Of a DNA stretch of 64,000 nucleotides, positions 37,977 to 56,124 are shown one piece after another. The first letter of the stretch is position 1, and every line of letters begins with the position of its first letter. The notes below the pieces were generated by a model, which was given only the letters and a program-made list of their open reading frames with translations, was not told the origin of the DNA and searched no databases. The stretch comes from Alphaproteobacteria bacterium (GTDB lineage: Bacteria > Pseudomonadota > Alphaproteobacteria > UBA7985 > JAUIBT01), in assembly GCA_030428255.1 (NCBI GenBank), contig JAUIBT010000008.1, forward strand, positions 26,794-90,793. The letters are read 5' to 3'. Position numbers and translations under genes: made by a program.

Positions 37977-38213
37977 CGCGACCAAGACCGGGACCTGCGC
38001 CAAATCGAGCAGCGCAAAATCGAGCAGCGACAGTCTTTCCGGTGGCGGGTTGGCCATCGCCTCGCTAAAGTCGTCCCAACAAGCCAATCGCGCGCGCAGT
38101 TCAGCGCGTCCGCGCGGTTGGCTCGATCACAACAGACGAGCATCCAACGAGCCGTCTGCCCGGGCGCGGGCGGCCTGCGGAGCCTCGGCGTGCAACGAAG
38201 AAGAGACACGACC

Positions 38214-41432: not shown

Positions 41433-42896
41433 CTAAGCGTCCGCCAAAAGCGTTGCGTAGTGTTGTTGCAAAATTTCCAAGAACACAGCGAGATCTTGCT
41501 CGAAATCGTCGTCCAGGCGCGCCAAGTGCGGGCGCAACAGGCGCGTATAGCCTTCCAGGCTTTCGCGGGCCAGGAGCAAGGCTGGCTCCATGGCTTCAAA
41601 TTCCGACGCCAGTTCCGCGCGCGGACGATCTAGACTCTTCAAGCGCTCCTTGGACAGAATCTTTAAGCCCTCTTGCGCCATGGGATCGCCACCAGCAGCA
41701 TCTGCGCGGCGCAGGCCATAGGCGACCGTCAGCCATTTGCGCAGCTTGTCGCTCAGTTTGTCCAAGGCGGCTACCAGCGCACTGTAGGCCAGGGCGTCGC
41801 GCCCGTCCATGCGGTCGGCGGGGTTAGCGTGGGTTTTGGCAGTGAAGCGCAAGTCGTTGGAGATGCCCGCTTGGATCGGATGAAAGCAGGTCATTTTCAA
41901 CCAACTTGGCCAGAGCACTGGCAGGCAAGTGTTGCATGCCAAAAGCGACTCTATGGTATCGAGGTCGGCCTTGTTGAACAGCTTAATATCCGAATGCAAA
42001 ACTCGCGCCTGGAACCGCTCCAGCTCGCTTTCTTCGCTGTTGGTCTCCAAGACTTGGCTGGATTGGGCATAGCCCATGACCGACTGCTGGTCGGCTAAGG
42101 CGGCGCTGGCGGCCTCGACCACGTGATCCTCGCGCGCCTCGGCACCGGTCAACCCATCGAGCAGGCGGGCTTGTCGCTTGGTCTCCAACGATTGCACGCA
42201 GGCCCAAAAGCAAGATTTGTAGGTGGTCAAACGGGTGTTGCTGGGGTGTTGCCACAGCTCCAGAACGGGGTCAAAACCCTGGTGGGCGCTGAAATCTTGG
42301 GGCAGGCAGGAATCCACCAGCTTGAGGGTCTCGGCCGCAGCGCCTTCCTTGAAATGCGCCGCGCGGTAGCGGTACCACAGCTTAGATAAATCGCGCACCA
42401 ATCCGTTGAATCCATTGGCGTCACCTCGATCTAGCACGGTGACTTTGCTTAATAAATCGAGAATTTCGGGTGTGTGCTTGTAAGCATCACAGCCCAAGAT
42501 AAATTGCGCAATCTTGGCAATTTGTTGCACTTTGTATCGGGTCAGCCGCAGCCGCTGTGCGCCGACATCCAGCATGAGGCTGCCATCCTTGTCGGCTTGG
42601 CAAGCCGGGCTGCCATCGTCTGAGAGTGCGCGCAGGGCGTGCCACAAATCGCGGCCATCGCGCAAAATGGCCATGGGTCCATCGCTGGCCAACGGCGCAC
42701 CCGGCGTAACGCACAGAGCCCATTGCACCCGCAGCCAGGCCCAAATCGGCTTGTCTTTATTGTTGGACCAGCCGGCCATAAGCGCGCGAGCGACGTCACG
42801 CTTAAACTGCCTTGAGTAATCGGCGTCGTGAAACAAGGCTTGGAATTCGGATCGCGCCGTATCCGACCAAAGCGTCATGAGACTGCCTTGCACCAT
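41433..42896 (-). CDS. Hypothetical protein (487 aa, helical, no signal peptide)
   Basis: Long ORF filling the gap with an AT-rich upstream region; no motif recognised. Confidence 0.7.
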   Translation of the reverse strand: MVQGSLMTLWSDTARSEFQALFHDADYSRQFKRDVARALMAGWSNNKDKPIWAWLRVQWALCVTPGAPLASDGPMAILRDGRDLWHALRALSDDGSPACQADKDGSLMLDVGAQRLRLTRYKVQQIAKIAQFILGCDAYKHTPEILDLLSKVTVLDRGDANGFNGLVRDLSKLWYRYRAAHFKEGAAAETLKLVDSCLPQDFSAHQGFDPVLELWQHPSNTRLTTYKSCFWACVQSLETKRQARLLDGLTGAEAREDHVVEAASAALADQQSVMGYAQSSQVLETNSEESELERFQARVLHSDIKLFNKADLDTIESLLACNTCLPVLWPSWLKMTCFHPIQAGISNDLRFTAKTHANPADRMDGRDALAYSALVAALDKLSDKLRKWLTVAYGLRRADAAGGDPMAQEGLKILSKERLKSLDRPRAELASEFEAMEPALLLARESLEGYTRLLRPHLARLDDDFEQDLAVFLEILQQHYATLLADA

Positions 42897-43001: not shown

Positions 43002-43034
43002 AAAAAAAGAGGCCGCGCTGGGAGCACGGCCTCT
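43002..43034 (-). terminator. Rho-independent terminator
   Basis: Minus strand reads AGAGGCCGTGCT-CCC-AGCGCGGCCTCT then a T-run. Confidence 0.8.
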
Positions 43035-43076: not shown

Positions 43077-44141
43077 TTAGTAGGAGCGAACCTGCAGGAT
43101 TTCCACAATGATCTCATTCTGACCATTGGTGCGAACCGAACCGACAACTCCCATCGCGTCAAGCATGAGGCGCAGGTTGCGGACCAGGCGACCTTGGTCG
43201 GCAGAGGTCTTGTAGTCGTAAGTCGCGCTAGAGAAGTTAGACTGTACGATGTCCACGTCGAACGCACATGACCAAGAGGACAAGAACTGCTCGACAGCGG
43301 TGATGCGGTAGTTATCGAAGCCGGTGAAGGTCAGCGAGAAGTTGGTCGGCAGGTTGCGACACTCGGGGTTCGGGTAGCGCGGAGCCAGTTGGCCGCCAGT
43401 GCCGTTTTGATTGTTGCCAACAACGGGTTGGGTCGGCTGAACGGGCTGGGTCGGCTGAGTGGGAACAATCACCTGTTGGTGTCCACCGAAGGCCAGACCA
43501 AGGGGGCCAGCCAGTTGGATCGCCATTTGGTTGGCAGCATCGCGGGCCAGTACGTCGAAGTTATCCGATACAAAGCGCTTCACGCACTCTTGCGAGGGTT
43601 GGCCGTTGTTGCCAGTGCCCGCCGCACAGCCGGTGAAGGGAACGCCAGCGGTGTTCAGCGTCAGGCGGTCGCCGCCCAGGAACTGATTATCCAGCATATT
43701 CAACGCTTGGTACTCCAAGGTGCCTTGCAGTTTGGCGATGCCAGTGTAGGGATCCTTTACCGCTTCAGCGTAGGCCGAGTAGGTGATCACCACATCCAGC
43801 TTGGGGTTGGTGAAGTTGCGGGCGAAAGAGATGACCTCTTGTTCGCCGCGGCGGTGGTTGTCCTGGTTATAGTTGGGGAACTGAATGGCCAGGGCTGCTT
43901 CGTTGTACACGTCAAAACCGCCGATGTTGTATTGTGCCATGAGGCGCTGGTAGTCGGGCGAGCGGACGGTGTTCTGGAAGACGCGCAGAATTGAGTTCTG
44001 GATGCGGTTGCCGGCCTTAAGTGAGGAGGTGTCGCCATCGACTTGCATGACCATGACCTTCACGGTCTGGGCAGAGGCAGCGGTTGCAGCACCGAGGAGT
44101 GTGAGGCTGGCCAAGCCAGCAGCGGCGAGAAGGCGTTTCAT
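43077..44141 (-). CDS. Secreted hypothetical protein, two domains joined by a PTQP linker
   Basis: Signal peptide MKRLLAAAGLASLTLLGAATAASA; AAGGA RBS; two Cys pairs; own terminator. Confidence 0.8.
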   Translation of the reverse strand: MKRLLAAAGLASLTLLGAATAASAQTVKVMVMQVDGDTSSLKAGNRIQNSILRVFQNTVRSPDYQRLMAQYNIGGFDVYNEAALAIQFPNYNQDNHRRGEQEVISFARNFTNPKLDVVITYSAYAEAVKDPYTGIAKLQGTLEYQALNMLDNQFLGGDRLTLNTAGVPFTGCAAGTGNNGQPSQECVKRFVSDNFDVLARDAANQMAIQLAGPLGLAFGGHQQVIVPTQPTQPVQPTQPVVGNNQNGTGGQLAPRYPNPECRNLPTNFSLTFTGFDNYRITAVEQFLSSWSCAFDVDIVQSNFSSATYDYKTSADQGRLVRNLRLMLDAMGVVGSVRTNGQNEIIVEILQVRSY

Positions 44142-44340
44142 GACGTTGTCCTTTTATGTCAGTGAAGGTGATCGCTTGATGAACAGGGGGTGGGATAGGC
44201 AGGTGCAAAAATGCGTCGCTTTTGCAAAAATGGCCGATGTTCTTGGATACATCCCTGTTTTTCCGGGGCTTGCCGCTCCCGCGTTTGGTGGCTGTTGTGA
44301 TCCGCGCCAGACCCCGGCGCGCGCACTACGCCAACAGGAC

Positions 44341-44368
44341 AAAACCCCGGCTCTTGTGAGAGCCGGGG
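44341..44368 (-). terminator. Rho-independent terminator after the di-haem oxidoreductase gene
   Basis: CCCCGGCTCT-TGTG-AGAGCCGGGG perfect 10-bp stem with AAAA on its left. Confidence 0.75.
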
Positions 44369-44426
44369 AGTGTTGAAATCGGACCAGCGCTGGGCTGGCA
44401 TCGGACGGATGGCGAGTGCCAATGGA

Positions 44427-46649
44427 TTAGGGGCGTCCTTGCACAGCCGGTGCTAGGCTGGGCTCGACCGGGATGCGCAACGACTTCAAAAAGGTGATCA
44501 GGGCGGCTTGGTCCTGATCGCTCAGCCGCCGGAACGCTGCAACCGAAGCGTTGGCTTCAGATGGTGCCAGGTTCTGGTTGCCATGCGGCGCCCGGCAGGT
44601 GTCGTCGGCATGAGCCAAAATCGCATCGCGCAGGCTCAAGGCGCGACCGTCGTGCATATAGGGCGCTGTGTTGGCCACGCCCCACAAGGGCCGGGTCAGG
44701 TAGAGATCGCGCTCGACCAGCAAGCCTTCACGATCAACCTGTTGGCCAAAGGGATCGGCCAGGCACGCGCCCATGCGGTGGCGCTTTAAGTCGCTGAACA
44801 GCGGCACGTCCACCTGGCCATCGGCATAGAACGGCAGACGTGGGAAAGAGGCAGGCAAGGCATCGACGCTGGGATCTTCCATGTTGAGATCAAAGGCGTA
44901 GGAGCCGACCAGCTCGCGCACCGCAGTCGTCAGGCTTTCTTGGGCAGCCTTTTCGCTCTGCACGTCTGCTTTGCGGGCTTCAGCCGCCAACAGGTCGATG
45001 GGCAGCGGGCGATCTTTGGGGCTCGCAACGCCCAGGCCGACCCCATCGTCAACCACCACGGGGCCGTCGCGCAGGCTCTCCTTGGCGGCCGCCACCTCGT
45101 TGCCCAGCAGCTCAGGATTGTGAATCCCGACCCAGGGGCTTTCCAGGCGCAGGCTGGACTTATGGCAGCTTGCACATTGGGCGTCTTGTTCGAAAACTTG
45201 CTGCCCACGCGCCAACAAACTGGCTTCGATTTGGTTCGATGCAGGGCGTTGGATTGGCGGGCGATTGGCTAGGGCAAACAGGGTTAGAGCGGTGACTTCG
45301 CCGACGCTCACCTCGTTGTGGACACCGTCTTGGTCCGCGTCGCTGGCACTTGGGAAGGCCTCGACAGGTTGCATACCAAAGTGGAAGTTCAGCGCATCAC
45401 GCACGAAATTGCGCATGTTAGATGCGATGCCTTTCCATTGGAAGGGTCGCACCACGAAGTCTTGGGAGACCCCCTCGATGCCCGAGCAATCTTCTTCAAA
45501 GCCGGGCAACGCGCCACAAACTCCCTCGACGCTGTTGCCGCCGTTGGGACGCTTGAGCGCGGCATAGATGCCAAAATCCACGCCCTTCGAGGTGAGGCGC
45601 GCTTCGTACCAATTGCCGGGGTCGCCCTCGGCGGCTTGCAAGACCAGCTCGCGCAGATACAGAAGATCGACGGTCATCTCTTGCGCCAGCTTTTGGCTAT
45701 AGCCCGCGCCCATGACGTGCGGTGGGTTGCGTAGATAGATGAAGGTGGCTGCGTGGTTGGCCGAATGGCCGCGCGCTTGCATCTCGGCCAGCAGCCAACC
45801 GGGAGGATTGGCTTGCAGCAAGGGGTTGATCATGGCGTTGACGGAGATGCCACCGGAGCCCGCAACGCGGTCGGGGCGGGCACTGAGCGCATTGGTCTGG
45901 GTGTCGGTCAATTGATCGACACCGGTCAGGTTGTGGCACTCTAGGCAATTCTGGCTGTCGAGGCCATGGACGCGCAAATATTGCACGTCAGGGAAAAATT
46001 CGAATGAGGAGCCTGGTGTGTTGCGCAATTGCTCCAGGCGGCTCATGCGCGGCCCTCCGGGGCCCTCGCCAAACCCGTCTTTGTTGGTGAAGGGTTGGGT
46101 GAACAGGTGGCGTCCGATTTCTTGGATCTCACGAAAGCTGAGCGCTCCGGTCTCAATATCAACCTGGCTCACACGCACGCCAGGCACCAGCGATTGGTCG
46201 GCATCGGCTGGACGCGGAAAGGCAGGCACATTGTGGTTGGCCGGACTGGGGGTCGCATTGGCCGTAGGACTGGGCGGCGGCGTGCCGGAGCGCCGCTTGA
46301 CCACCGTCGGCTGAGCCGCGTTATCGCTGGGCGGCTGGTTGTTCGCCTGCCCGTTATTTTGGGCATCGGCAGGCGGAGCCGGTGGGGCGGGCGGCGCAGG
46401 CGGTGTTGGCGGCGTGGGAATGTTGGTCGGTTGCTGTGGTGGGCTCGGCGGCGTTGGTTGCAGCAAGCCGCCGCCAGAGCAGCCAGGCGCATCGGGGTTG
46501 AAAATGCAGTTGAGATTTTGGCTCATGGCCGGGCTCGACAAAGCCAAGAGGCCGACGGTGAGAAGCCCAAGCTTGAGGCTGGTGACGCGCGAGGGGTGGC
46601 GCGCAGATCGCGGGTCGCTTTGGCCGAGCAGAGGAGAGGTGCCGTGCAT
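44427..46649 (-). CDS. Secreted di-haem oxidoreductase (DHOR/putative peroxidase family) with Pro-rich N-terminal linker
   Basis: Two CxxCH motifs (CLECH, CASCH), RPFQWKG, LFSDLKRH, TRPLWG, YMHDGRA..L.DAILAH, FLKSL; signal LGLLTVGLLALSSPAMS. Confidence 0.82.
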   Translation of the reverse strand: MHGTSPLLGQSDPRSARHPSRVTSLKLGLLTVGLLALSSPAMSQNLNCIFNPDAPGCSGGGLLQPTPPSPPQQPTNIPTPPTPPAPPAPPAPPADAQNNGQANNQPPSDNAAQPTVVKRRSGTPPPSPTANATPSPANHNVPAFPRPADADQSLVPGVRVSQVDIETGALSFREIQEIGRHLFTQPFTNKDGFGEGPGGPRMSRLEQLRNTPGSSFEFFPDVQYLRVHGLDSQNCLECHNLTGVDQLTDTQTNALSARPDRVAGSGGISVNAMINPLLQANPPGWLLAEMQARGHSANHAATFIYLRNPPHVMGAGYSQKLAQEMTVDLLYLRELVLQAAEGDPGNWYEARLTSKGVDFGIYAALKRPNGGNSVEGVCGALPGFEEDCSGIEGVSQDFVVRPFQWKGIASNMRNFVRDALNFHFGMQPVEAFPSASDADQDGVHNEVSVGEVTALTLFALANRPPIQRPASNQIEASLLARGQQVFEQDAQCASCHKSSLRLESPWVGIHNPELLGNEVAAAKESLRDGPVVVDDGVGLGVASPKDRPLPIDLLAAEARKADVQSEKAAQESLTTAVRELVGSYAFDLNMEDPSVDALPASFPRLPFYADGQVDVPLFSDLKRHRMGACLADPFGQQVDREGLLVERDLYLTRPLWGVANTAPYMHDGRALSLRDAILAHADDTCRAPHGNQNLAPSEANASVAAFRRLSDQDQAALITFLKSLRIPVEPSLAPAVQGRP

Positions 46650-46966
46650 AAGTGGTGCTCCGTGGCTGTGGTGGCGATGCGCGCTGGGGCGCGGGCGACG
46701 CGGCGCTTGGAATGCAGTGTCTGCAAGGCCCAGGATCGCGCGTGGTCGGCCCACCAGATGGGGGGATGCAGGACAGCAAGTGGGTTAGAGAGGGCAAAAA
46801 ATGCGGTGGACCAGGGCAATTTTCTGGCCGTCCTAGCGGCCATGCTGACCCCTGATCCAGCAAGGGGATGGCAAGCCTTGGCGCGTTGCCTGGCAGATGC
46901 GTACGGCATCTCCACCTCGGTGGCTGCGGGACTAGGTGCCGCAAAGCCACCTTCGGGGTTTGCGGG

Positions 46967-48733
46967 TTAGCGCACCTCGACCAAGAACAGCATCTCACCG
47001 AAGCCATCGACGCGGCGCAAGTTTGCCAACAGGGTCTCGGTGACCTCGCTCGGTTGGTACTGATAGGGTTCGTTATTCTCGTCCAGTTGCAGATTGAAGG
47101 CCTTCTGCCAAGCGGTCAGCGCCTCGGGCGACCAGCTTGCATGGGTGACGCATTGAACGAAGAAGTCATATTCGCCGCTTTGGCCGATCTGGCCGACGGC
47201 GAAATCGAAGGCCGCCGCCTGACCGGGGTAGAACAGCTCGCCGGGGGTGCCGTCTTTGCCCTTCAGAGCCATTGGCGCTTCGCTGAGCAAGAAAGACTCG
47301 TTGCTGTCATCGTTGGCCAGGCAAAGCGCGGCTTGCGGCTGTTCGGACTCGTTGAGCAACGTGAAGCGCAGCGTATCGCCCCAGCGCAGCTTGACCACAT
47401 CGCTGGCTCCTTTGACTGGTGACGGGTTGCGCAAGGCTATGATTTGGCTGAGGTCTTGCGGCGAGGCTTGGTCATCGCTCTTGCTCAGTGGATCAAGGCC
47501 CAACTCCAACTCGCGTTTGTCGGTCATGCCGCCGTTGTCGCTGTCGGCCAGCAGGGGATCGGTTTGGAACAGCTTGATTTCATCGCCGTCGTTCAGGCCG
47601 TCGCCGTCGCTATCGGCGGTATTGGGATCAGTGCCGTGCTGGCGCTCCTCTTTGTCGAACAAGCCGTCTTCATCGCTGTCGCGAGGGTTGGCGGTCAAAT
47701 CACACTTGAAGGCCTTCACACGGGTGGCCGCGGTCGAGATCAGTTCGACCACGCCATCTTTGACCAGCGTGTACTTGGTGGCATAGATCACCTCGCCTTC
47801 AGGGCTGGGGGTGTTGCCATCGCTGCTGGCATCGACTTGGATGTGCAGATGTAAGGGCACCGTTTCAGAGCGGCTAACGCCCAGGCTGTGCTCGGTCTGA
47901 AGGGTGCTGACCAGGGTGTTGCGGAAGCTTTGGCCGCAGGAGCCGCGAACGTTGCTCAGGATTTCGCCGCTAAAATTCTCAACCGGGGCAATATAGACGA
48001 TCTGATCCTGCTGGGCGCGAATGAGCTGGGCCAGTAGGCGCGCCTGGCTGGCGGCGTAGTCACGCAACCAGGGTTCGTCGATGCGCACCTGGTATTGGCC
48101 GACCACCTCAAGACACAGGAGGCCGCGATCATAGAGCTCAATCTTGATGTCGGCACGATTGCGCGCTGAGCTTAGAACCTCGATCTTCGCCATCACGCCA
48201 AAGGCCGCTTCAATCTGCTTGATAATCCGTCGGCCTTCTTCAGCGGTGGCCCCGCGCACGCTGACCAGAGAGGCAACATCACCACCTTCGCTCAGCGAGG
48301 CGAGGGGCAAATAGGCCTTGGTCACCGAGTCCTGCACAATCGATTTCACCCGGTCGAGCTGAAAGCTGGAAAGATCAGATGTGGCGCGGCTGAGGGCGAT
48401 GGGGTTGAGAACCGCCACCTGATAGTCACGGTCAATGCAGCTTGGTTTTTGCAGCATGCGCACAAAGGCAAAGGCAACATCGGCGGCGATGCGTTGGGAA
48501 AGGTCAAATTGCGGGCCCGCGCCAGGTCGCGCGGCGCGTTGTCCGGGGACCACTTGCGGTACAGGTTGACCAGCGCCAGGCTGCAAGATCTGGGCCTGGC
48601 TGGGGCCAGCCATCGAAGCGCCGCCGCCAATCGCCAGCAAGCAGGCTAGTGCGAGCAGCCTTGGGCGTGCTGCGGCGGTGGCTCGAGCGAGCAAGGCGGG
48701 AGGCAGGGCTGATAACTTTGAAGAAAGGCGCAT
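46967..48733 (-). CDS. Secreted protein with TSP3-like Ca-binding repeats and a C-terminal DUF4384-like domain
   Basis: Signal-like LLALACLLAIGGGASMA; DSDEDGLFDKEE, DSDGDGLNDGDE, DSDNGGMTDKRE each followed by a G/QxDP motif; LRWGDTLRFTL...LFYP...GEYDFFV resembles DUF4384. Confidence 0.7.
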   Translation of the reverse strand: MRLSSKLSALPPALLARATAAARPRLLALACLLAIGGGASMAGPSQAQILQPGAGQPVPQVVPGQRAARPGAGPQFDLSQRIAADVAFAFVRMLQKPSCIDRDYQVAVLNPIALSRATSDLSSFQLDRVKSIVQDSVTKAYLPLASLSEGGDVASLVSVRGATAEEGRRIIKQIEAAFGVMAKIEVLSSARNRADIKIELYDRGLLCLEVVGQYQVRIDEPWLRDYAASQARLLAQLIRAQQDQIVYIAPVENFSGEILSNVRGSCGQSFRNTLVSTLQTEHSLGVSRSETVPLHLHIQVDASSDGNTPSPEGEVIYATKYTLVKDGVVELISTAATRVKAFKCDLTANPRDSDEDGLFDKEERQHGTDPNTADSDGDGLNDGDEIKLFQTDPLLADSDNGGMTDKRELELGLDPLSKSDDQASPQDLSQIIALRNPSPVKGASDVVKLRWGDTLRFTLLNESEQPQAALCLANDDSNESFLLSEAPMALKGKDGTPGELFYPGQAAAFDFAVGQIGQSGEYDFFVQCVTHASWSPEALTAWQKAFNLQLDENNEPYQYQPSEVTETLLANLRRVDGFGEMLFLVEVR

Positions 48734-48848
48734 CTTGTGATCTGTTTTCGCTTATATGTGAGCCGACGCGCACAGGGCGCGAACGCGTTTTGAGGTCAGT
48801 GGAAACGCCAGGGGCGGGTTGCGGACAGGTCAAGCACGGACCAACGCC

Positions 48849-51413
48849 CTAATCACAACGCGCATTGGTGTCGATAATGCTCAAATATTTGCCATACGAG
48901 CAGCCCGAAGGCGTGGCGCGGCCCCACAAAGGCGTCTGGCAGCGTCCCTCTATGCAGGAAACACGATACCAGGAGCCTTCTTTGCCCGTGATTTCAACAA
49001 TGTCTCCACGATAGAGCTCGCCGACTTGCGAAAATCGCGTGCTGCAGCCATTCCGCACGGCCAGGAAGCCGCGCCCAGAGCTGTGGTTATAGCTGGATAT
49101 GGAAGCAATATTGGTGTTGACCCGCGCAATGGTGCAGCGCCGTTGGGTTTGTTCGGGTGGGCAGATTTGAAAGCCAGCATTGCGCTCAACTGACAAGACG
49201 GCGTTTGCGAGCTGCTTGGCCGAACTTGCGCTCAGATCTTGGCCTGTGACCTTAGAGAAGGTGCCCAGCGCCTTACGGGTCGCGCTGTTAAAGCTGCCGT
49301 CCAGGCTGCCGGCGTAGCAGGCGGTGTTGTAGAGCGCCAATTGCAGGCGGCGATAGGCTTGCTCTTTGCTGACGCAGATACCGTTGATGGTCACGCCTGA
49401 GCAGCTCAAGCTCTTAATCAGGCGCGCCGCTTCTTGAGAGACGCCCGGCACCTGTTCATAGCGCAAGGCGCAGCGCCGCAACATGGAGACTTGATTGGAT
49501 GACGAGGCCTTGGCTGCGTCCAAGCAGTCTTGCGCGGCCTGCCTGTCTTCGCGTTCGCAGGCCTGCTCACCGTATAGCTCGGCGCGGCGCAGTTCGGCGT
49601 CAATGTCGAGGAGTAGAGCGCCCGAATGACGACGCGCGCTCCACTCGGCTTGGAAATGTTCCCACTCTTGGCAGGAGCCAGTCGAGCGAAGTAGGGCAAG
49701 CTCTGAGAGAAATGTTTCCTGCATGACCTGCTGTTCAACCTCGCAAATCGCGTGGCGCTTGGCCTGATAGGGGCTCATGTCGTCGGGGGCTTTGGGGTGG
49801 TTTTGCCATTGGCCCAAGAAGGCATCCCAGTCCCGACAGGTCGAAGGATTAGGCATGAGGTCGAGTGCCGCCAGGAAGGCCGGTGAGGGTTGGTTTGGAT
49901 CGACTTCAGGCGTCGCGATGGTGTCCGGGGTGGTGCCCTGGGCTGGGTCGGGCGTGCTGGTTTGGCCGTCGGCGCTGTTGGTGGCGCCATCGCCGGTCGT
50001 CGCTAGATCGCTGCCGGGCGTTGGGCAAGTGCCGTCCAAAAGGCACTGACAAGAGGCTCCCGCCGCGTCGTTGCTATCGACGCAGGCTTGGACGGAGGCC
50101 TTTTGCGGGCAGCACTCACAGCGATTGAGCAAGAAGCTCATGCGGGTCAGCGCGCCAGAGCGGACAAAACTTTGCAGCAAATCGCTCTCGACTTTACAGG
50201 CGCTGGCCCGCGCCGACAGCAGGTTGATTTGGGTTTGCAGGGCTGCGCGTTGCTGCTCTTCTTCGCAGAACTCGCAGGTTAATGAGAAGCCGCGCAGCAG
50301 CTCCAAGGTCTCGGTGATGGTCTGCGGGTCGCTCGACGCCAAGGCTGTGTTGGCGGCGGCCATCAGCTCGTCGTTACGAAAGGCCTCGATAAAGGCACGC
50401 TCCTGATTGAGGCTGTAGCTGGGGTAGACCTCGCCGTCATAGCGGATCACCACCTCGTCGTCGTTCATACCGGTAAAGCTTGGGCGTTGTTGAAAGGCCG
50501 AGGTTTGGCCGCTGGCGGCCAGGCGTGCGAGGCGTTTGGCGATGGTTGCGGTGACGCTGGAGCGCATCTCGGCCGCGGTGATCTGGAAATCGCCGTTGGC
50601 ATCGGCCTTGCCGTCGTGCAATGCGGACATCAGCGCGTCGGTGAAGATGCCGCGCTGAAACTCGGTGTCCCAGACGGCAAAATCGGTATCGGGTGAGGTG
50701 GCGGCCCACAGGCGAATATCGGGCAATTCAACCGCCGCAGCCCGGCCCAAGGGCGGCGCGGAGACACCGCGCACCAGGCCGCCGGACTGCTGACCGTCGG
50801 CGCTGGGGTTCAGACCTGAGAAGCAGGATTCCAGCACCAGCGTAATACGACCGGTCTTCAGGCGACGGGCTTGCAATGTACGCAAGGCCGCCTCAAGGTC
50901 ACTCAGGCTAAGCGCTTGATCTGCCAGAAATTTTTGATCCGGATTGGCGTCAGTGGGCAGCAGGTAATTTTGAGTAAGGCTCGGGTCTTGCGGCGAATCG
51001 TGGGTGCCGTGTCCAACGTAGTAAATATAAAGATCGGTGTCTTGGGTCAGCACGAAATTGGCCAAGCTGCCGAGCCTCTGGCTGTCGCCAATCAGCTCTC
51101 GCATGCGGTTGGTGCCCAAATTATCGAAGCGGTGGACTTGGGCGCCCAGCACCTCGCTGGCGAACAGTGCGAAGGCGTTTGCGTCTTGGGTCGCGTAGGC
51201 GATGTCATCGGTTTGCAAGTAGTCCTGGTTGGCGATGATCAGGGCCACGGTCTGGCTGTAGGATTTGGGGCCGGTTGCTGGCGTTTCATCGCCGCGCGCT
51301 GTGCCAGCAAAGCCGCCAATCACCAAGACGATCCACAATCCGACGGCCACCAGTGCGCGCCGCGCCGGGTACTTTGAGAGGTAGGAGCAAGATGGGGCGA
51401 TGGCGCGTGTCAT
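48849..51413 (-). CDS. Secreted caspase-family (peptidase C14) protein with peptidoglycan-binding-like and SH3b-like C-terminal domains
   Basis: Signal/TM; ALIIANQDY, YYVGHG, YLLPTDA, LESCFSG, GIFTDAL; LQLAL..ACYAGSLDG.F...TRKAL; LAVRNGCST.F..VGEL..GD.V.ITG.EGSWYRV. Confidence 0.85.
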   Translation of the reverse strand: MTRAIAPSCSYLSKYPARRALVAVGLWIVLVIGGFAGTARGDETPATGPKSYSQTVALIIANQDYLQTDDIAYATQDANAFALFASEVLGAQVHRFDNLGTNRMRELIGDSQRLGSLANFVLTQDTDLYIYYVGHGTHDSPQDPSLTQNYLLPTDANPDQKFLADQALSLSDLEAALRTLQARRLKTGRITLVLESCFSGLNPSADGQQSGGLVRGVSAPPLGRAAAVELPDIRLWAATSPDTDFAVWDTEFQRGIFTDALMSALHDGKADANGDFQITAAEMRSSVTATIAKRLARLAASGQTSAFQQRPSFTGMNDDEVVIRYDGEVYPSYSLNQERAFIEAFRNDELMAAANTALASSDPQTITETLELLRGFSLTCEFCEEEQQRAALQTQINLLSARASACKVESDLLQSFVRSGALTRMSFLLNRCECCPQKASVQACVDSNDAAGASCQCLLDGTCPTPGSDLATTGDGATNSADGQTSTPDPAQGTTPDTIATPEVDPNQPSPAFLAALDLMPNPSTCRDWDAFLGQWQNHPKAPDDMSPYQAKRHAICEVEQQVMQETFLSELALLRSTGSCQEWEHFQAEWSARRHSGALLLDIDAELRRAELYGEQACEREDRQAAQDCLDAAKASSSNQVSMLRRCALRYEQVPGVSQEAARLIKSLSCSGVTINGICVSKEQAYRRLQLALYNTACYAGSLDGSFNSATRKALGTFSKVTGQDLSASSAKQLANAVLSVERNAGFQICPPEQTQRRCTIARVNTNIASISSYNHSSGRGFLAVRNGCSTRFSQVGELYRGDIVEITGKEGSWYRVSCIEGRCQTPLWGRATPSGCSYGKYLSIIDTNARCD

Positions 51414-51841
51414 TCAAAAGGCTTCTTTGGTCAGACGTGAGCGGTTGGGGCGAAGCTCAGCGTGTTGCGCGGTCCACGCAGGCACGAAACCGGGCTTGGC
51501 CCATGGATGGTGGAAACCTTTGGACCGGTTTCGGCCTGGTTCAGGAGCAGGTCCGGTTGCCGAGCTGGTTGGGCTTGTGTCATTCGAGCACTTTTGCCCC
51601 GGTCCTCACGCCCTCGTGAGTGCTTTGCTGGCCTTATGGCAGATTTGATCCAAATTTTTCCACGCTCGGGCTATAGTCTTACAACTGGAGACCAGGTGCA
51701 AGTCGCAGCTGGCCCAACACGTCGAGACGCCGGAGACCGGTGACGCGCAGCAGGACCAAGTCGGTCAGCCATCCGCGCGCAGGCACTAGATGCCACGAGA
51801 CCTTTCGGTGGACTTGCTGCGACGGAACAGAGGAAAGTAAC

Positions 51842-54592
51842 ATGGCAATCCAGACCACAGACGCTCCAGAGCGTTGGCTTCAACGCTCCCTGATTCTGGG
51901 CTCCCTGATTCTGGGCCTCCTGAACTTGCGTCTCTTGAATCTGCGATTCGGCGGTGTGCGCCTGATGATCCTTGCCGCCTTGGCCGGGCTCGCCAGCCTG
52001 TCTATGGCCAGTGCCGCTCACGCCCTGGGCAAGCCGGTGGTGGTGATCATTTCCAACAGCGACTATCAGCAAACCGACGATGTGGCCTACGCCGAGCGCG
52101 ATGCTCAGGCCTTTGCAGACTTTGCCAGCGACGTGCTGCAAGCACGCGTCGTTCAGTTATCGAACCTTGGCACCAACGCCATGAACGAGCTGTTTGGCGA
52201 TGGCCAGCGCCTGGGCTCCATTCGCAATTATATCACCACGCCCGATACCGACCTTTACGTCTATTACGCCGGCCACGGTACCCACGATGCGCCAGCACAG
52301 GGCCCAGCGCACAACTATTTGCTGCCCGTCGATGCCAACCCAGATCAATCCTTCTTGGCCCGCCAGGCCTATTCCGTTGAGGATCTGCGCGCCAGCTTGC
52401 AGCGCCTGCAGCAAGAGGCCATGCCCGATGGCCGCATTACGCTGGTCCTGGAATCCTGCTTCTCAGGTCTGAACCCCAGCGCGGATGGCAGCGCCAAAGG
52501 CTTGCTGCCCGGCGTGTCGGCACCGCCGCTTGGAAAGGCAGTTGATCTGGACCTACCGGACATTCGCCTTTGGGCCGCCACCTCTCCTGACACCGACTTT
52601 GCCGTCTGGGACGATCGCTTTGAGCGCGGGGTCTTCACCGACGCCCTGCTGTCAGCGCTCTATGGCGGCGCGGCTGACCGGGACAAAGATTTCCAAGTCA
52701 CCGCCCAGGAGATGCAGGCCTATGTCGCGCGCCGCATCAACCAGCAGGTCGCGAGCCTGACCCAGGCCGGGCTGGGTTTCCGCCAGCGCCCGACCTTCAG
52801 CGGTATGGCGGGTGATGAAGTGATTGTCACCTATCCCGCAGGCATCTACCCGACCTATGCCACCGACGAGCAGCGCCGCTATGAAGAAGATTTCGTAGCC
52901 TTCGAGCTGTTGGACAAGACCATGGGCGTCGTCGCGAGCGCTGACCCGCAAACCCTCAGCCAGTCGGTTGAGGAGGTGCGCGATTTCACCTCGACCTGCC
53001 AGTTCTGTCAGGACAATCAAAAGCTGTACCAGCGTATGAATGAGCTGCGCCAGCGCCTGCAAACCTGCCGCGCTGAGCAGCGCCTTTTGACTCGCATCGT
53101 TGAGCAGCAGCGCATGCAAAGTCTGCAACGCCTGGCCAGCCGCATGGAGTGCGGCTATGGCGCGACAGCCATTCAGGCTTGCGTATCAACCGGTGACTTT
53201 ACCTCAAGCGCCTGCCAGTGCTTGAGCGATGAGGACTGCGTGGCTCAATCCGAAGACCTAACCCCTCGCTGTGACGCGGCGCTGGCCAAAATTGGTGACC
53301 AACCGCTGGGCCAGCAAGGCGCGCTCTACGCCAGCTTTACTCAAGACAACCCGGACTGCGCCATTATCGACAGCAAGGCTAAGACCGCTCTGGCTGCTTA
53401 CTGCCAAGATCAAGCCAGCGCGGCTGGCGTCGGCCAGCAAACGGCGAGCCTGTCGGAGTTGACCGGCTTTGTCATCGCCCACCCCTATTGTCAGCGCGCC
53501 GTCGATCAGGCAGAGCAGCAAATCGCCGCTTTGGAGGTTGATGTTGCCAATCAGGCCTGCGAGCAGGCCTTTCAGGCCGCTGCGGATATGCAAGACCCAC
53601 AGCTCTTGACCAGCTTTATCCAAGCTATGCCCGAATGTACGCAGCAAGTCACACAGGCCGAAAACCTGCTGTCTGATCTGCAAGAACGAGTGGGCCAGTG
53701 CCAGCAGGCCTATTTCCAAGCCAGCGCCGCCGATGATTTGGAAAGCCTTGAGAGTTTCGCGCGCGACTACAGCGTTTGCGAGATCGAATTGGGCTTGGCA
53801 GAACAACGGATCGGTGAATTGCGGCAAGAACAGCAGCACATCCAAGAGGCCAGCGCCTGCATGGCCATCGCCGAAGAGCGCTTGCCGGTCAATACCGAAG
53901 AAGGTTTGGCTGTTCTCGAAGAGTGTTCGGTGGTGTTCGCCGATGTCGAAGGCATCACAGACCGCGCAGAACAACTGCGCTTGGATTATGCCAATCGCTG
54001 CGATCAGATCGACCTGGGCACCGACTGTTTGAGCCCGCACGAGGCCTACCTATCAGTGCAGAGTCAGCTCAAGCTTGCGGGCTGCTATACTGGCGGGCTG
54101 GACGGTGATTTCGGTCCCAAGTCGCGCGCGGCACTGGCGGCCTATAACAAGGCGACCGGCAGCAGCCTGCGTGTCGATAGCGAAGCGGGATTGATCGACG
54201 CCATCCACTGGCTGGCCTCTGTCTCTGGCCGGGTCTGCACCCGCCAGGCGCATTTGGACTACACCCGCCGCAAGGACATCGACCTGTCACGTCATGCCAA
54301 CGATATGTACAAAGATGGCCTGCGCCTGAGCGTATCCGAGTGTGCCGAACAGTGCAATGCGCTCAGCGGTTGCGTTGGCTTTGCCTACGTTACCAAGAAG
54401 AGCACCAAGTACGCCCGCTGTTGGCCCAAGTCGGATTTCGGCAACCGTTACAAAATCTCGGTCGTGGATTTCTATATCAAGCCGGGCGTCAAGGACACCA
54501 GCGTGTGGCCTAAGGCCAGCTCGCCTAAGATCAAGGGCACCTTCAATCTTGGCACCGGTAAGGGCACCATCACCTTTGGGACCAAGAACTAG
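51842..54592 (+). CDS. Secreted caspase-family (peptidase C14) protein with peptidoglycan-binding-like and PAN/Apple-like C-terminal domains
   Basis: GAGGA RBS; signal ...LAALAGLASLSMASAAHA; YYAGHG, LESCFSG, GVFTDAL; VQSQLKLAGCYTGGLDGDFGPKSRAAL; ECAEQC...GCVGFAY...RCWPK. Confidence 0.85.
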   Translation: MAIQTTDAPERWLQRSLILGSLILGLLNLRLLNLRFGGVRLMILAALAGLASLSMASAAHALGKPVVVIISNSDYQQTDDVAYAERDAQAFADFASDVLQARVVQLSNLGTNAMNELFGDGQRLGSIRNYITTPDTDLYVYYAGHGTHDAPAQGPAHNYLLPVDANPDQSFLARQAYSVEDLRASLQRLQQEAMPDGRITLVLESCFSGLNPSADGSAKGLLPGVSAPPLGKAVDLDLPDIRLWAATSPDTDFAVWDDRFERGVFTDALLSALYGGAADRDKDFQVTAQEMQAYVARRINQQVASLTQAGLGFRQRPTFSGMAGDEVIVTYPAGIYPTYATDEQRRYEEDFVAFELLDKTMGVVASADPQTLSQSVEEVRDFTSTCQFCQDNQKLYQRMNELRQRLQTCRAEQRLLTRIVEQQRMQSLQRLASRMECGYGATAIQACVSTGDFTSSACQCLSDEDCVAQSEDLTPRCDAALAKIGDQPLGQQGALYASFTQDNPDCAIIDSKAKTALAAYCQDQASAAGVGQQTASLSELTGFVIAHPYCQRAVDQAEQQIAALEVDVANQACEQAFQAAADMQDPQLLTSFIQAMPECTQQVTQAENLLSDLQERVGQCQQAYFQASAADDLESLESFARDYSVCEIELGLAEQRIGELRQEQQHIQEASACMAIAEERLPVNTEEGLAVLEECSVVFADVEGITDRAEQLRLDYANRCDQIDLGTDCLSPHEAYLSVQSQLKLAGCYTGGLDGDFGPKSRAALAAYNKATGSSLRVDSEAGLIDAIHWLASVSGRVCTRQAHLDYTRRKDIDLSRHANDMYKDGLRLSVSECAEQCNALSGCVGFAYVTKKSTKYARCWPKSDFGNRYKISVVDFYIKPGVKDTSVWPKASSPKIKGTFNLGTGKGTITFGTKN
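51886..51945 (+). repeat. 15-bp in-frame tandem repeat (4 copies, progressively diverged) in the caspase N-terminus
   Basis: CTCCCTGATTCTGGG x2, CCTCCTGAACTTGCG, TCTCTTGAATCTGCG. Confidence 0.8.
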
Positions 54593-54771
54593 CCGCGCGT
54601 CGGTCCTTCCGCTCCCTGGTTTTTCACTCTTGGGCCTTTGCGCTGATCGCGACCCCAAGTGTCTGTCCTTGAGCAAGACCCAGCTACGAAGCTGAGGCAA
54701 GCTCTGCCAAACAACACCGGATCGCAGGTCGTGCCGCTGGGCAGGGCCTGCCGGTTCTCAGGGAGGCAGGC

Positions 54772-56124
54772 ATGGGCCAGAGTGACAACCGACGCAGCTA
54801 TCAATCGCGGGTCCACCCCGACAATTTCCGCCATCGACCGACCGCGAATGACGCTCAAGGCGATCCCTTGGGTTTGGGTTCCTTTGGCGACCTGGGGCCT
54901 GGTGACCCGGCGCTCAGCGAGTGGCAAGCGGCCGGTCTCGAGCTGCCAGATGTGCCCAGCATGCGCGCCCATCGCTTGCAACGCTTGCGCAGCAAGTTGG
55001 CCGAGCACGGCTGTGCCGCCGGGCTGTTCTATGATCCCATGAACGTGCGCTATGCCACCGACAGCACCAACATGCAGATTTGGTGCCTGCACAACGCGGT
55101 GCGCTATACGTTGGTGTTTGTCGATGGCCCGGTGCTGGTCTGGGATTTCCACGGCTGCGAGCACCTCAACACCCACCTGCCGCTGGTCGACGAAGTGCGC
55201 AACGCCACGGCCTACTACTACTTTGCCACCGGCGAGCGATCTGAGGAGACGGCGGCGCGCTGGGCCACTGAAGTCGATGAGGTGCTGCGCCGCCACATGG
55301 GCAGCTCCAAACGCATCGCGGTGGACAAGCTGGAGCTGCACGGCAGCAAGGCACTGGAGGCTAAGGGCTGGCAGCTCTATGACGGGCAGATGGTGGCCGA
55401 GCAAGCCCGCGTGATAAAGGGCAGCGAGGAGATCAAAGCGCTGCGTTGTGTCACCCATGCTACCGAGGTTGCCATGCGCCACATGCAAGACGCGCTGGTG
55501 CCGGGCATCTCTGAACAAGAGCTGTGGGCTGTGTTGCACCGCGAGAACATCGCGCGCGGCGGCGAGTGGATTGAAACCCGCCTGCTGGCCTCAGGCCCGC
55601 GCTCCAATCCTTGGTTCCAGGAGTGCTCCTCGCGCCGGGTCGAGGACGGTGATATCGTGGCCTTTGATACCGATCTGGTCGGTGCCTGGGGTTATATGTG
55701 CGATATCTCGCGCACCTGGTTGGCGGGCGACCGCGAGGCGACGGGCGAACAGCGCGAACTCTATAAAATGGCGCGCGAGCAGATCGCCTATAACCTTGAC
55801 GTGATCAGGCCGGGCCTGTCCTTCTTGGAGTACAGCCAGCAAGCCTTTGTTTTGCCTGAAGACTTTCAAGCCAACCGCTATTCGGTCATCACCCACGGCG
55901 TAGGCCAGTGCGATGAATACCCCAGCATTTACTACCCAACGGACGTGGCCGCGGTCGGCTATGACGGCATGATCGAGCCCGGCATGTGCCTGACGGTTGA
56001 AAGCCTAATCGGCAAGGTAGGCGGGCGCGAGTGCGTTAAGCTGGAGGAACAACTCATGGTGACCGAAACCGGCGTTGAGGTCATGTCGCGCTATCCGTTT
56101 GAGGACGCACGCTTCGGGCTGTAA
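54772..56124 (+). CDS. dddP: M24 metallopeptidase-fold protein, DMSP lyase DddP-like
   Basis: Motifs I recall from Roseobacter DddP: EW..AGL.LPD, RYATDSTNMQ.W, RGGEWIETRLLASGPR.NPWFQEC, FDTD, DISRTW, HGVG.CDE, KLE.Q. Confidence 0.8.
   Translation: MGQSDNRRSYQSRVHPDNFRHRPTANDAQGDPLGLGSFGDLGPGDPALSEWQAAGLELPDVPSMRAHRLQRLRSKLAEHGCAAGLFYDPMNVRYATDSTNMQIWCLHNAVRYTLVFVDGPVLVWDFHGCEHLNTHLPLVDEVRNATAYYYFATGERSEETAARWATEVDEVLRRHMGSSKRIAVDKLELHGSKALEAKGWQLYDGQMVAEQARVIKGSEEIKALRCVTHATEVAMRHMQDALVPGISEQELWAVLHRENIARGGEWIETRLLASGPRSNPWFQECSSRRVEDGDIVAFDTDLVGAWGYMCDISRTWLAGDREATGEQRELYKMAREQIAYNLDVIRPGLSFLEYSQQAFVLPEDFQANRYSVITHGVGQCDEYPSIYYPTDVAAVGYDGMIEPGMCLTVESLIGKVGGRECVKLEEQLMVTETGVEVMSRYPFEDARFGL

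Follow-up and report, generated by a model that had tools for sequence, protein, structure and literature searches.

Exported caspase-like proteases as probable members of an envelope-spanning gene system in uncultured Alphaproteobacteria

A caspase locus and its partners beyond the genus

The 64,000-nucleotide stretch of alphaproteobacterial DNA analysed here (hereafter the window) contains five consecutive genes for apparently exported proteins, among them two caspase-like proteases. In order, the open reading frames (ORFs) encode P354, an exported protein of 354 aa (43077-44141, - strand); DHOR775, a 775-aa di-haem protein (44427-46754, -); TSP3_588, a 588-aa TSP3-repeat protein (46967-48733, -); CaspA, a caspase-like C14 protease (48849-51413, -); and its divergent paralogue CaspB (51740-54592, +). 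A preliminary description of this DNA had reported five consecutive genes with signal-like N-termini, four of them co-oriented, and this is borne out by the ORFs, as all five products carry an N-terminal hydrophobic segment followed by small-x-small sites. Next to them, outside the range 43077-54592 covered by that description, lies g487 (41433-42896, -), the gene of a predicted cytoplasmic protein of 487 aa in which no such segment was found. Judging from gene order and sequence, it is highly probable that CaspA, CaspB, P354 and g487 are part of a conserved, envelope-spanning system of several genes.

Relatives of P354 from outside the genus were examined at 20 loci, taken from sampled genomes of the class, contigs of GTDB genomes and metagenome contigs. 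We searched the ORFs of these loci with iterated hidden Markov model profiles for which the window and the most complete loci supplied the starting sequences. An OmpA-family gene stands directly upstream of the P354 relative in 14 of the 20. Three families that we call H, E and G were found in 5, 8 and 6 loci, respectively, a relative of g487 in 7, a trypsin-like protease in 6 and a caspase with the same extended module (~440 aa including its Cys-rich part) also in 6, whereas the di-haem and the TSP3 proteins were each found in 0/20. Five of the loci cannot show partners because they are under 4 kb, and L043 and L068 break off at the expected position of the caspase gene; caspase and P354 occur together in all five loci of the close P354 subfamily that reach at least 9 kb upstream. 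The neighbourhood check called for in the preliminary description therefore has a divided answer: caspase and P354 recur together outside the genus, consistent with an undescribed envelope module around exported caspases, but the membership of that module differs from the one first put forward.

The arrangement is clearest in L067 and L073, where the genes are tightly packed in the order caspase–g487–H–E–G–trypsin–OmpA–P354–I1–YceI-like. The same order is seen in the truncated L068 and is rearranged in L042, L043 and L044; in L042 a divergent caspase gene is followed by OmpA–P354–DUF4384 protein–g487–H–E–G–trypsin–OmpA. Homologues of g487 adjoin caspase, H and E genes in 7/20 loci, and the neighbourhood of L044 also has a YkuD L,D-transpeptidase. 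The system is found in rare uncultured bacteria, and in other uncultured Alphaproteobacteria and Pseudomonadota its gene order points to one operon (caspase–g487–H–E–G–trypsin-like–OmpA-like–P354).

The genome studied here has the system in two pieces, the H–E–G–trypsin–OmpA half being encoded on a second contig, C42. There the H, E, G, trypsin-like and OmpA-like genes follow one another in that order at C42:47138-51861 (L075 7138-11861, +), in housekeeping surroundings: an aminotransferase and a GH3 glycosidase gene enclose them, and at a greater distance come a DEAD-box helicase gene and lon on the upstream side and fabMG on the downstream side; the last four genes of the group were located by tblastn against the genome, and H was added by the profile map. 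From their sequences and their recurrence, the cytoplasmic g487 and this second locus appear to be conserved partners that the preliminary description had missed.

The same association can be seen in the distribution of the families. In a sample of 401 genomes from the class, 15 had a match to the P354 profile, 12 to the E profile and 10 to both, a coupling for which Fisher's test gives p = 7e-15, a value that is overstated because related genomes are not independent. The five genomes with P354 only give partial, single-domain matches, and the P354 and E genes are ~4 kb apart in G157 and G328. Five P354-positive genomes were tested for the remaining partners: g487 was found in 3/5 and the caspase module likewise in 3/5, while G108 and G273 had neither. 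Caspase modules can be numerous, with 9 matches in G208, 5 in G281 and three paralogues in the present genome. From the genome and locus counts, therefore, the core of the system is E and P354, usually accompanied by the OmpA-like protein and G, with the caspase, g487, H and the trypsin-like protease as common though not universal members.

The caspases

CaspA matches Pfam Peptidase_C14 (PF00656) at 45.6 bits (cut-off 21.4) and has in addition a C-terminal SH3_3 domain and a Cys-rich helical region. CaspB, which is 51% identical to CaspA across 433 aa, gave no match to the Pfam C14 family at E ≤0.01. The best NCBIfam match of both is caspase_w_EACC1 (NF047832), at 1.6e-10 in each case and with 40.8 and 40.9 bits, respectively, against a cut-off of 140. 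The preliminary description held that both proteins keep the His-Gly and Cys dyad, and we agree: GHG is at residue 134 and ESCFSG at 195 in CaspA, and at 178 and 238 in CaspB, which by motif gives the dyads H135/C197 and H179/C240. Across nine aligned caspase modules the His is present in 9/9 and the Cys in 8/9. The exception is a fusion protein of 864 aa (L035 6359-8953, -, genome G208), encoded next to the P354 relative and divergently from it, in which a Cys-less caspase-like domain is joined to SH3, PDZ and peptidase S41 domains. A profile search of the caspase modules against the PDB found no caspase, and CaspA itself had 0 matches to PDB sequences at E ≤0.01, so that the dyad is assigned from sequence motifs.

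Outside the catalytic module the two proteins are less easily classified. A peptidoglycan-binding-like domain had been ascribed to both, and here the signals are weak or sub-threshold: PG_binding_1 reaches 18 bits in CaspB (cut-off 23), and the corresponding stretch of CaspA (~685-745) has no Pfam match, aligns with that of CaspB and shows a weak match to HxsA at 685-724. A PAN_4 domain of CaspB likewise stays under its cut-off (24.5 bits against 27). Dependence on calcium, which had been suggested as a possibility, gains some substance as a hint from a canonical 12-residue EF-hand-type loop inside both caspase domains, at residues 271-282 of CaspA (placed in 49600-50600 of the window) and 313-324 of CaspB (52676-52711); the loop is conserved in the family consensus, and the nine-module profile matches EF-hand Ca-binding proteins of the PDB with E between 1e-4 and 1e-3. 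The annotated start of CaspB is probably too far upstream and the real one near codon 76; conservation within the genus starts at residues 31-73.

A third caspase paralogue of 869 aa, ~50% identical to CaspA over the module, is encoded elsewhere in the genome (G000:C6:197455-198708; L020 8241-10850, -). It is unlinked, as no other system gene occurs within 19 kb, and it is kept in all four genomes of the genus. At L067 (501-3614) and L073 (667-3684) the caspase has a long N-terminal extension matching separate DUF4384-bearing proteins of L042 and L043, and from this match we read the extended caspase as an apparent fused form of two components. By eye, the middle helical regions of CaspB (~500-760, window 52300-54000) and CaspA (~515-680) show some five Cys-pair-bearing units of the form 'hydrophobic-x-x-F…P-x-C … C', which we take to be reminiscent of the 'F..YP.S' repeats of BamD/YbgF type; the L073 caspase shows a weak match to YfiO (E 0.007), and a self-BLAST of CaspA and of CaspB for internal repeats gave nothing significant.

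P354 and the remaining conserved partners

The AlphaFold2 (AF2) model of P354 (mean predicted local distance difference test score, pLDDT, 88.5) has two domains, an N-domain at 25-219 and a ferredoxin-like C-domain at 265-350, joined by a disordered linker of PTQP type. In VIA comparisons the N-domain resembles HpaA (Z 11.0), PelC (10.2), CsgG (9.9), TolB (9.6) and LptE (8.5), and also DUF330 and a flagellar LPHT-ring protein (Z 9-11 for the group), with root-mean-square deviations of 3.0-4.4 Å over 122-158 residues; Foldseek gave E values of 5e-5 to 1e-3 for the CsgG/PelC-type fold. The modelled N-domain thus appears to have the fold of the CsgG/PelC-type proteins, a likeness that does not imply a shared function. 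Four Cys are invariant in 11 sequences (C172, C186, C261 and C292). No lipobox Cys was found, the first Cys being residue 172 and the small-x-small sites of the signal region lying at 17-24.

P354 belongs to no Pfam or NCBIfam family and has no relative in the PDB by sequence, only the distant fold matches. A word-index search returned 2 relatives and an exhaustive search of cluster representatives 149 at E ≤1e-3, mostly of ~300 aa with both domains, and those looked up were unnamed or called 'hypothetical protein'. P354 is rare. The predicted complex of P354 with the OmpA-like protein of C42 scored 0.50, 0.00 and 0.00 in three runs, which gives no verdict and is evidence neither way.

No Pfam, NCBIfam or PADLOC family covers P354 or four of its partners (g487, H, E and G), and by sequence g487, E and P354 are without relatives in the PDB. 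The AF2 model of g487 is all-alpha (pLDDT 77) and the protein contains no hydrophobic segment; when the whole 487-aa model was searched, the best Foldseek E was 0.18 (none ≤0.001) and the best VIA Z, in the wide search, 5.5. Phmmer against the PDB found 0 matches for it at E ≤1, and the word-index search 3, comprising g487 itself and genus members only. E, about 400-530 aa long, begins with a conserved N-domain of ~230 aa without a signal peptide and crosses the membrane once, at 234-252; its C-terminal domain contains two invariant Cys. This C-terminal domain is found again in G, where it follows a membrane anchor or signal and a low-complexity linker, and the E profile also catches G. A likeness of the cytoplasmic domain of E to the Ser-Lys protease domain of Lon, suggested by a motif resemblance, received a probability of 0.15% when the E alignment was compared by hhalign with the single Lon sequence of this genome, and the E profile had 0 matches in the PDB at E ≤10. 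The trypsin-like protein matches Trypsin_2 at 1.3e-12. As read from sequence, g487 and H would be cytoplasmic, E would be a single-pass protein whose conserved N-domain faces the cytoplasm and whose periplasmic domain is akin to the one in G, and the exported components would be G, the trypsin-like protease, the OmpA-like protein, P354 and the caspases.

The di-haem and TSP3-repeat proteins

The two remaining genes of the window appear to have a different history. DHOR775 was correctly described as a di-haem CxxCH enzyme: it has two such motifs, CLECH at 270 and CASCH at 527, and matches Pfam DHOR (PF06537) at 36.9 bits (cut-off 22), a match confined to the final 93 positions of the profile (407-499 of 499). 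The Pfam scan found cytochrome-c signatures too, and weak NCBIfam matches to di-haem peroxidase, MbnH and MauG-like families are all far under their cut-offs. A Pro-rich N-terminal linker of ~120 aa and an insert of ~100 aa set the protein apart from the ~500-aa proteins of other genomes with which its core (191-765) aligns. Its annotated start is probably too far upstream, conservation within the genus starting at residues 59-136, and it had 0 matches to PDB sequences at E ≤0.01. Neither an imelysin, a frequent companion of DHOR genes whose absence had been remarked on before, nor an MbnP-type partner was among the Pfam matches of eight window proteins, the rest of the genome not having been searched.

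TSP3_588 consists of an orphan N-domain, three Ca-type TSP3 repeats (352-408; Pfam TSP3_bac 2.9e-15) and an orphan C-domain. Of its previous characterisation as a TSP3-repeat and DUF4384-like protein the repeats stand. The DUF4384 (PF14326) likeness was not confirmed, with no Pfam match at E ≤0.01 and an hhalign probability of 0.25% against four DUF4384-bearing proteins of related loci. Both TSP3_588 and the DUF4384 proteins gave hhalign probabilities of ≤1% against the P354 and E families. Full-length relatives of TSP3_588 number four, all from the genus, and the other matches listed (of 305) cover the TSP3 repeats only, 5-32% of the query.

Within the class, relatives of DHOR775 occur in seven genomes, none of which has P354. 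Because full-length TSP3_588 is confined to the genus and the DHOR775 relatives sit in genomes without P354, these two genes are best read, from their distribution, as probable lineage-specific (genus) insertions between the caspase and P354. A redox partner, which the preliminary description had included in its module, is thus not indicated, since both genes are absent from the 20 loci and DHOR relatives are found where P354 is not.

Transcription units and conservation in the genus

Two intrinsic-terminator-like hairpins lie among the co-oriented genes. One, at 43008..43034 (-), is directly 3' of the P354 stop, its 12-bp stem containing 8 GC pairs and leading into a T7 tail; the other, at 44345..44368 (-), is 3' of the DHOR775 stop and combines a 10-bp stem, of which 8 pairs are GC, with a T-rich tail. 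Terminator-like matches over the region are at chance level (14 against 14.5 in shuffles), and these two hairpins have the longest stems of the region, both intergenic. A hairpin with a T-run follows P354 in 4/4 members of the genus, with a stem sequence that differs among them, and a hairpin comparable to the one after DHOR775 is present in 3/4. Because these flanking intergenic hairpins are conserved in the genus, P354 is most likely monocistronic and g487 a separate unit. The predicted terminators would divide the window genes into at least three transcription units, so that the four co-oriented genes are probably not one operon.

The order of the five genes is kept in 4/4 genomes of the genus. 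This synteny says little, because it takes in the flanks, housekeeping genes included: the flanking M24 peptidase gene and g487 keep their places too. Identity to the window proteins within the genus is 94-98% for P354, 75-87% for DHOR775, 70-82% for the caspases and 60-83% for TSP3_588, and 83-88% for the M24 peptidase, whose 83% value comes from a match to the initial 121 residues alone, where a contig ends. The conservation of P354 in the genus exceeds that of the flanking peptidase and far exceeds that of TSP3_588.

A proposed mechanism and its alternatives

How might such a set of proteins work? We propose that the caspases would be tethered to peptidoglycan, near a scaffold of P354 and the OmpA-like protein beneath the outer membrane. 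A cue in the envelope might activate them, either Ca2+ acting on the EF-hand-like loop or a ligand recognised by their variable SH3/PAN-type C-termini, upon which the caspases and the trypsin-like protease would cut the periplasmic domain of E or G. Cleavage could then relay a signal through E to the cytoplasmic g487 and H as output. Taken as a whole, a conserved system with a mechanism of this kind is the explanation that we judge slightly likelier to be right than wrong. Its functional part, regulated proteolysis across the inner membrane with E or G as substrate in the service of envelope surveillance or defence, is put forward tentatively. The most specific form of the idea is more doubtful again: peptidoglycan-anchored caspases and the trypsin-like protease might form an extracytoplasmic cascade that cleaves E and switches on g487 and H, proteins of unknown fold, and, with equal reserve, the cue might be sensed by the variable C-terminal domains and the Ca-binding loop, which would make this a new class of trans-envelope surveillance device.

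Several observations weigh against the system and mechanism as proposed. G108 and G273 have P354 and E and give no caspase-module match, so the caspase is not universal, and seven loci of at least 13 kb are likewise without it. The close loci are partly non-independent: L067, L068 and L073 seem to be relatives of one another, and a single genus accounts for both L036 and L037, which leaves ~8 lineages. The genes of the window are 115-300 bp apart with terminators between them, which leaves their co-regulation no more than a supposition, and a comparison of 12-mers (≤2 mismatches) shared among seven upstream regions, taken from both loci and the third caspase paralogue, gave a best motif in 3/7 regions against 3-4 in shuffled controls, no better than chance and thus no sign of a regulon. 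The cytoplasmic domain of E is without a recognised fold or enzyme signature, and the choice of E or G as substrate, like the direction of signalling, is inference only.

Two rivals are live and differ from our preferred explanation mainly in purpose. In one, the system would provide immunity at the level of the envelope, against phages or competitors: caspase C-termini would sense foreign ligands or a breach of the envelope and set off a protease cascade ending, via the cytoplasmic partners, in growth arrest or death. An architecture in which the N-terminal caspase stays constant while the C-terminal domains vary, together with expanded paralogues, would suit this purpose, as would the co-occurrence of caspase and trypsin-like proteases and the fast divergence of TSP3_588 relative to P354, and the same design principle has been described for the EACC1-caspase conflict system, in the part of that study considered here (Kaur et al., 2020; PMC7159879). 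We nonetheless regard immunity as unlikely, as PADLOC-DB 2.0 gave nothing meaningful for 16 proteins (0 families for six window proteins and, for ten further system proteins, only weak generic matches to ZorB/MotB through the OmpA domain, to Avs1b at 0.002 through the trypsin domain and to a caspase at 0.0014), no recognisable toxic effector domain was found, and the locus has no defence-island or mobile-element context, its flanks being housekeeping genes syntenic in the genus. In the other, which seems to us somewhat less likely still, P354 and the OmpA-like protein would tether the outer membrane to peptidoglycan in a Tol-Pal-like or ring-like structure, and the proteases would mature or turn over envelope proteins without any cytoplasmic signal. 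The fold that the P354 N-domain has in common with TolB-N, LptE, PelC, CsgG and flagellar ring proteins speaks for such a structural machine, as do the OmpA-like gene that always adjoins P354 in the close subfamily, the YkuD gene near L044 and the extreme conservation of P354 in the genus. A purely periplasmic machine, however, leaves g487, H and the N-domain of E, conserved and cytoplasmic as they are, unexplained; moreover, P354 lacks the lipobox Cys of CsgG, PelC and LptE, and no motor or transporter genes are present.

The model of the preliminary description, a self-contained periplasmic proteolytic and redox module of five genes in which the caspases process the Pro-rich linker of DHOR775 or the PTQP linker of P354, we find improbable. 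Its genes are indeed adjacent, exported and kept in order throughout the genus, and both linkers exist and are predicted to be disordered. Yet genus synteny extends to the housekeeping flanks, DHOR775 and TSP3_588 are missing from every related locus, the seven genomes of the class with DHOR relatives are without P354 and the terminators argue for several transcription units; cleavage of either linker is pure conjecture. Least probable of all is that these are unrelated envelope genes which became neighbours by chance. The gaps and terminators, the failure to find a shared upstream motif and the complex prediction without a verdict would fit chance, but caspase, g487, E, OmpA and P354 recur together in ~8 distant lineages with changing order, and the P354–E coupling (10 genomes common to the 15 and the 12) points the same way.

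To the best of our knowledge, the bacterial caspase-like systems that have been studied experimentally (gasdermin activation, Craspase and orthocaspases) act in the cytoplasm. The caspases described here are exported, probably wall-tethered, and are tied by gene order and phyletic pattern to partners reaching from the cytoplasm to beneath the outer membrane, five of which (g487, H, E, G and P354) stand outside every Pfam and NCBIfam family. If the system is real, it raises the question of what a caspase does in the periplasm, and it offers candidate substrates, a scaffold and a cytoplasmic output with which to approach it; were the cascade true, it would be a bacterial counterpart of the extracellular immune protease cascades of eukaryotes, with a caspase working outside the cytoplasm. 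The case also advises caution in reading local gene order, given that two of the five genes first flagged appear to be lineage-specific inserts and that half of the system is on another contig.

Relation to known systems

The system falls outside every described kind that was tested. In the metacaspase survey of Asplund-Samuelsson et al. (2012; PMC3501461), the part considered here mentions a possible signal-peptide N-terminal helix in 46 sequences, a peptidoglycan-binding domain in 11 and OmpA in 14 operons, so that the surveyed prokaryotic metacaspases and orthocaspases resemble ours in having a C14 domain with the His/Cys dyad, an N-terminal segment, peptidoglycan binding and OmpA in the operon. 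That part of the survey lists architectures, however, and contains no multi-gene system with g487, H, E, G or P354 and no function. The EACC1-caspase system, as far as the same portion of its description goes (PMC7159879), is similar in its constant N-terminal caspase with variable C-termini and its single-transmembrane partner, and supplies the best NCBIfam match of CaspA and CaspB. It differs in that this match is only ~41 bits against the cut-off of 140, that the caspases here are exported and that the partner set is different and much larger; a 5' co-directional small transmembrane gene is also missing, the caspase genes being divergent with no ORF of at least 100 aa between them (smaller ORFs were not searched with the EACC1 profile). 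No description of this operon was found in the literature, and the architecture and operon tables of PMC3501461 and PMC7159879 may already list related operons.

Other likenesses are of fold or manner of working. The P354 N-domain fold, with an OmpA/Pal-like peptidoglycan binder as constant neighbour, recalls the CsgG/PelC/LptE/LpoB/HpaA/TolB-N proteins and the TolB–Pal pair, from which P354 is set apart by the missing lipobox, the absence of a TolB beta-propeller, the extra ferredoxin-like C-domain and the lack of sequence similarity. In the sigma-E response, DegS, RseA and RseB link an envelope cue to the cytoplasm through a periplasmic trypsin-fold protease and a single-pass protein. The present system is comparable by analogy of working only, as its proteins are not known to be related in sequence to RseA, RseB, RseP or sigma factors, it has a caspase in addition and its cytoplasmic partners are of no recognised type. 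DHOR775, for its part, is like the DHOR, MbnH and MauG di-haem enzymes in its two CxxCH motifs, its Pfam match and its aligning core, and unlike them in its Pro-rich extension and insert and in NCBIfam scores under the cut-offs. Weak NCBIfam matches to components of the His-Xaa-Ser (HXS) system, MauG-like for the C-terminus of DHOR775 (5.5e-5) and HxsA for CaspA 685-724 (0.0014), are probably generic domain similarities; HXS is reportedly described in a 2026 paper as a periplasmic anti-phage system.

Flanking genes

No mobile-element family was found among the eight window proteins scanned with Pfam, in keeping with the earlier remark that no transposase or integrase flanks the cluster. The neighbours are ordinary genes, encoding pyruvate phosphate dikinase (PPDK; 38118-40874, +) on one side and the M24 (creatinase/prolidase-type) peptidase (54772-56124, +) on the other. 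Long ORFs on the opposite strand, for example at 46029-46970 (+) and 54589-55539 (-), appear to be shadow frames of GC-rich genes.

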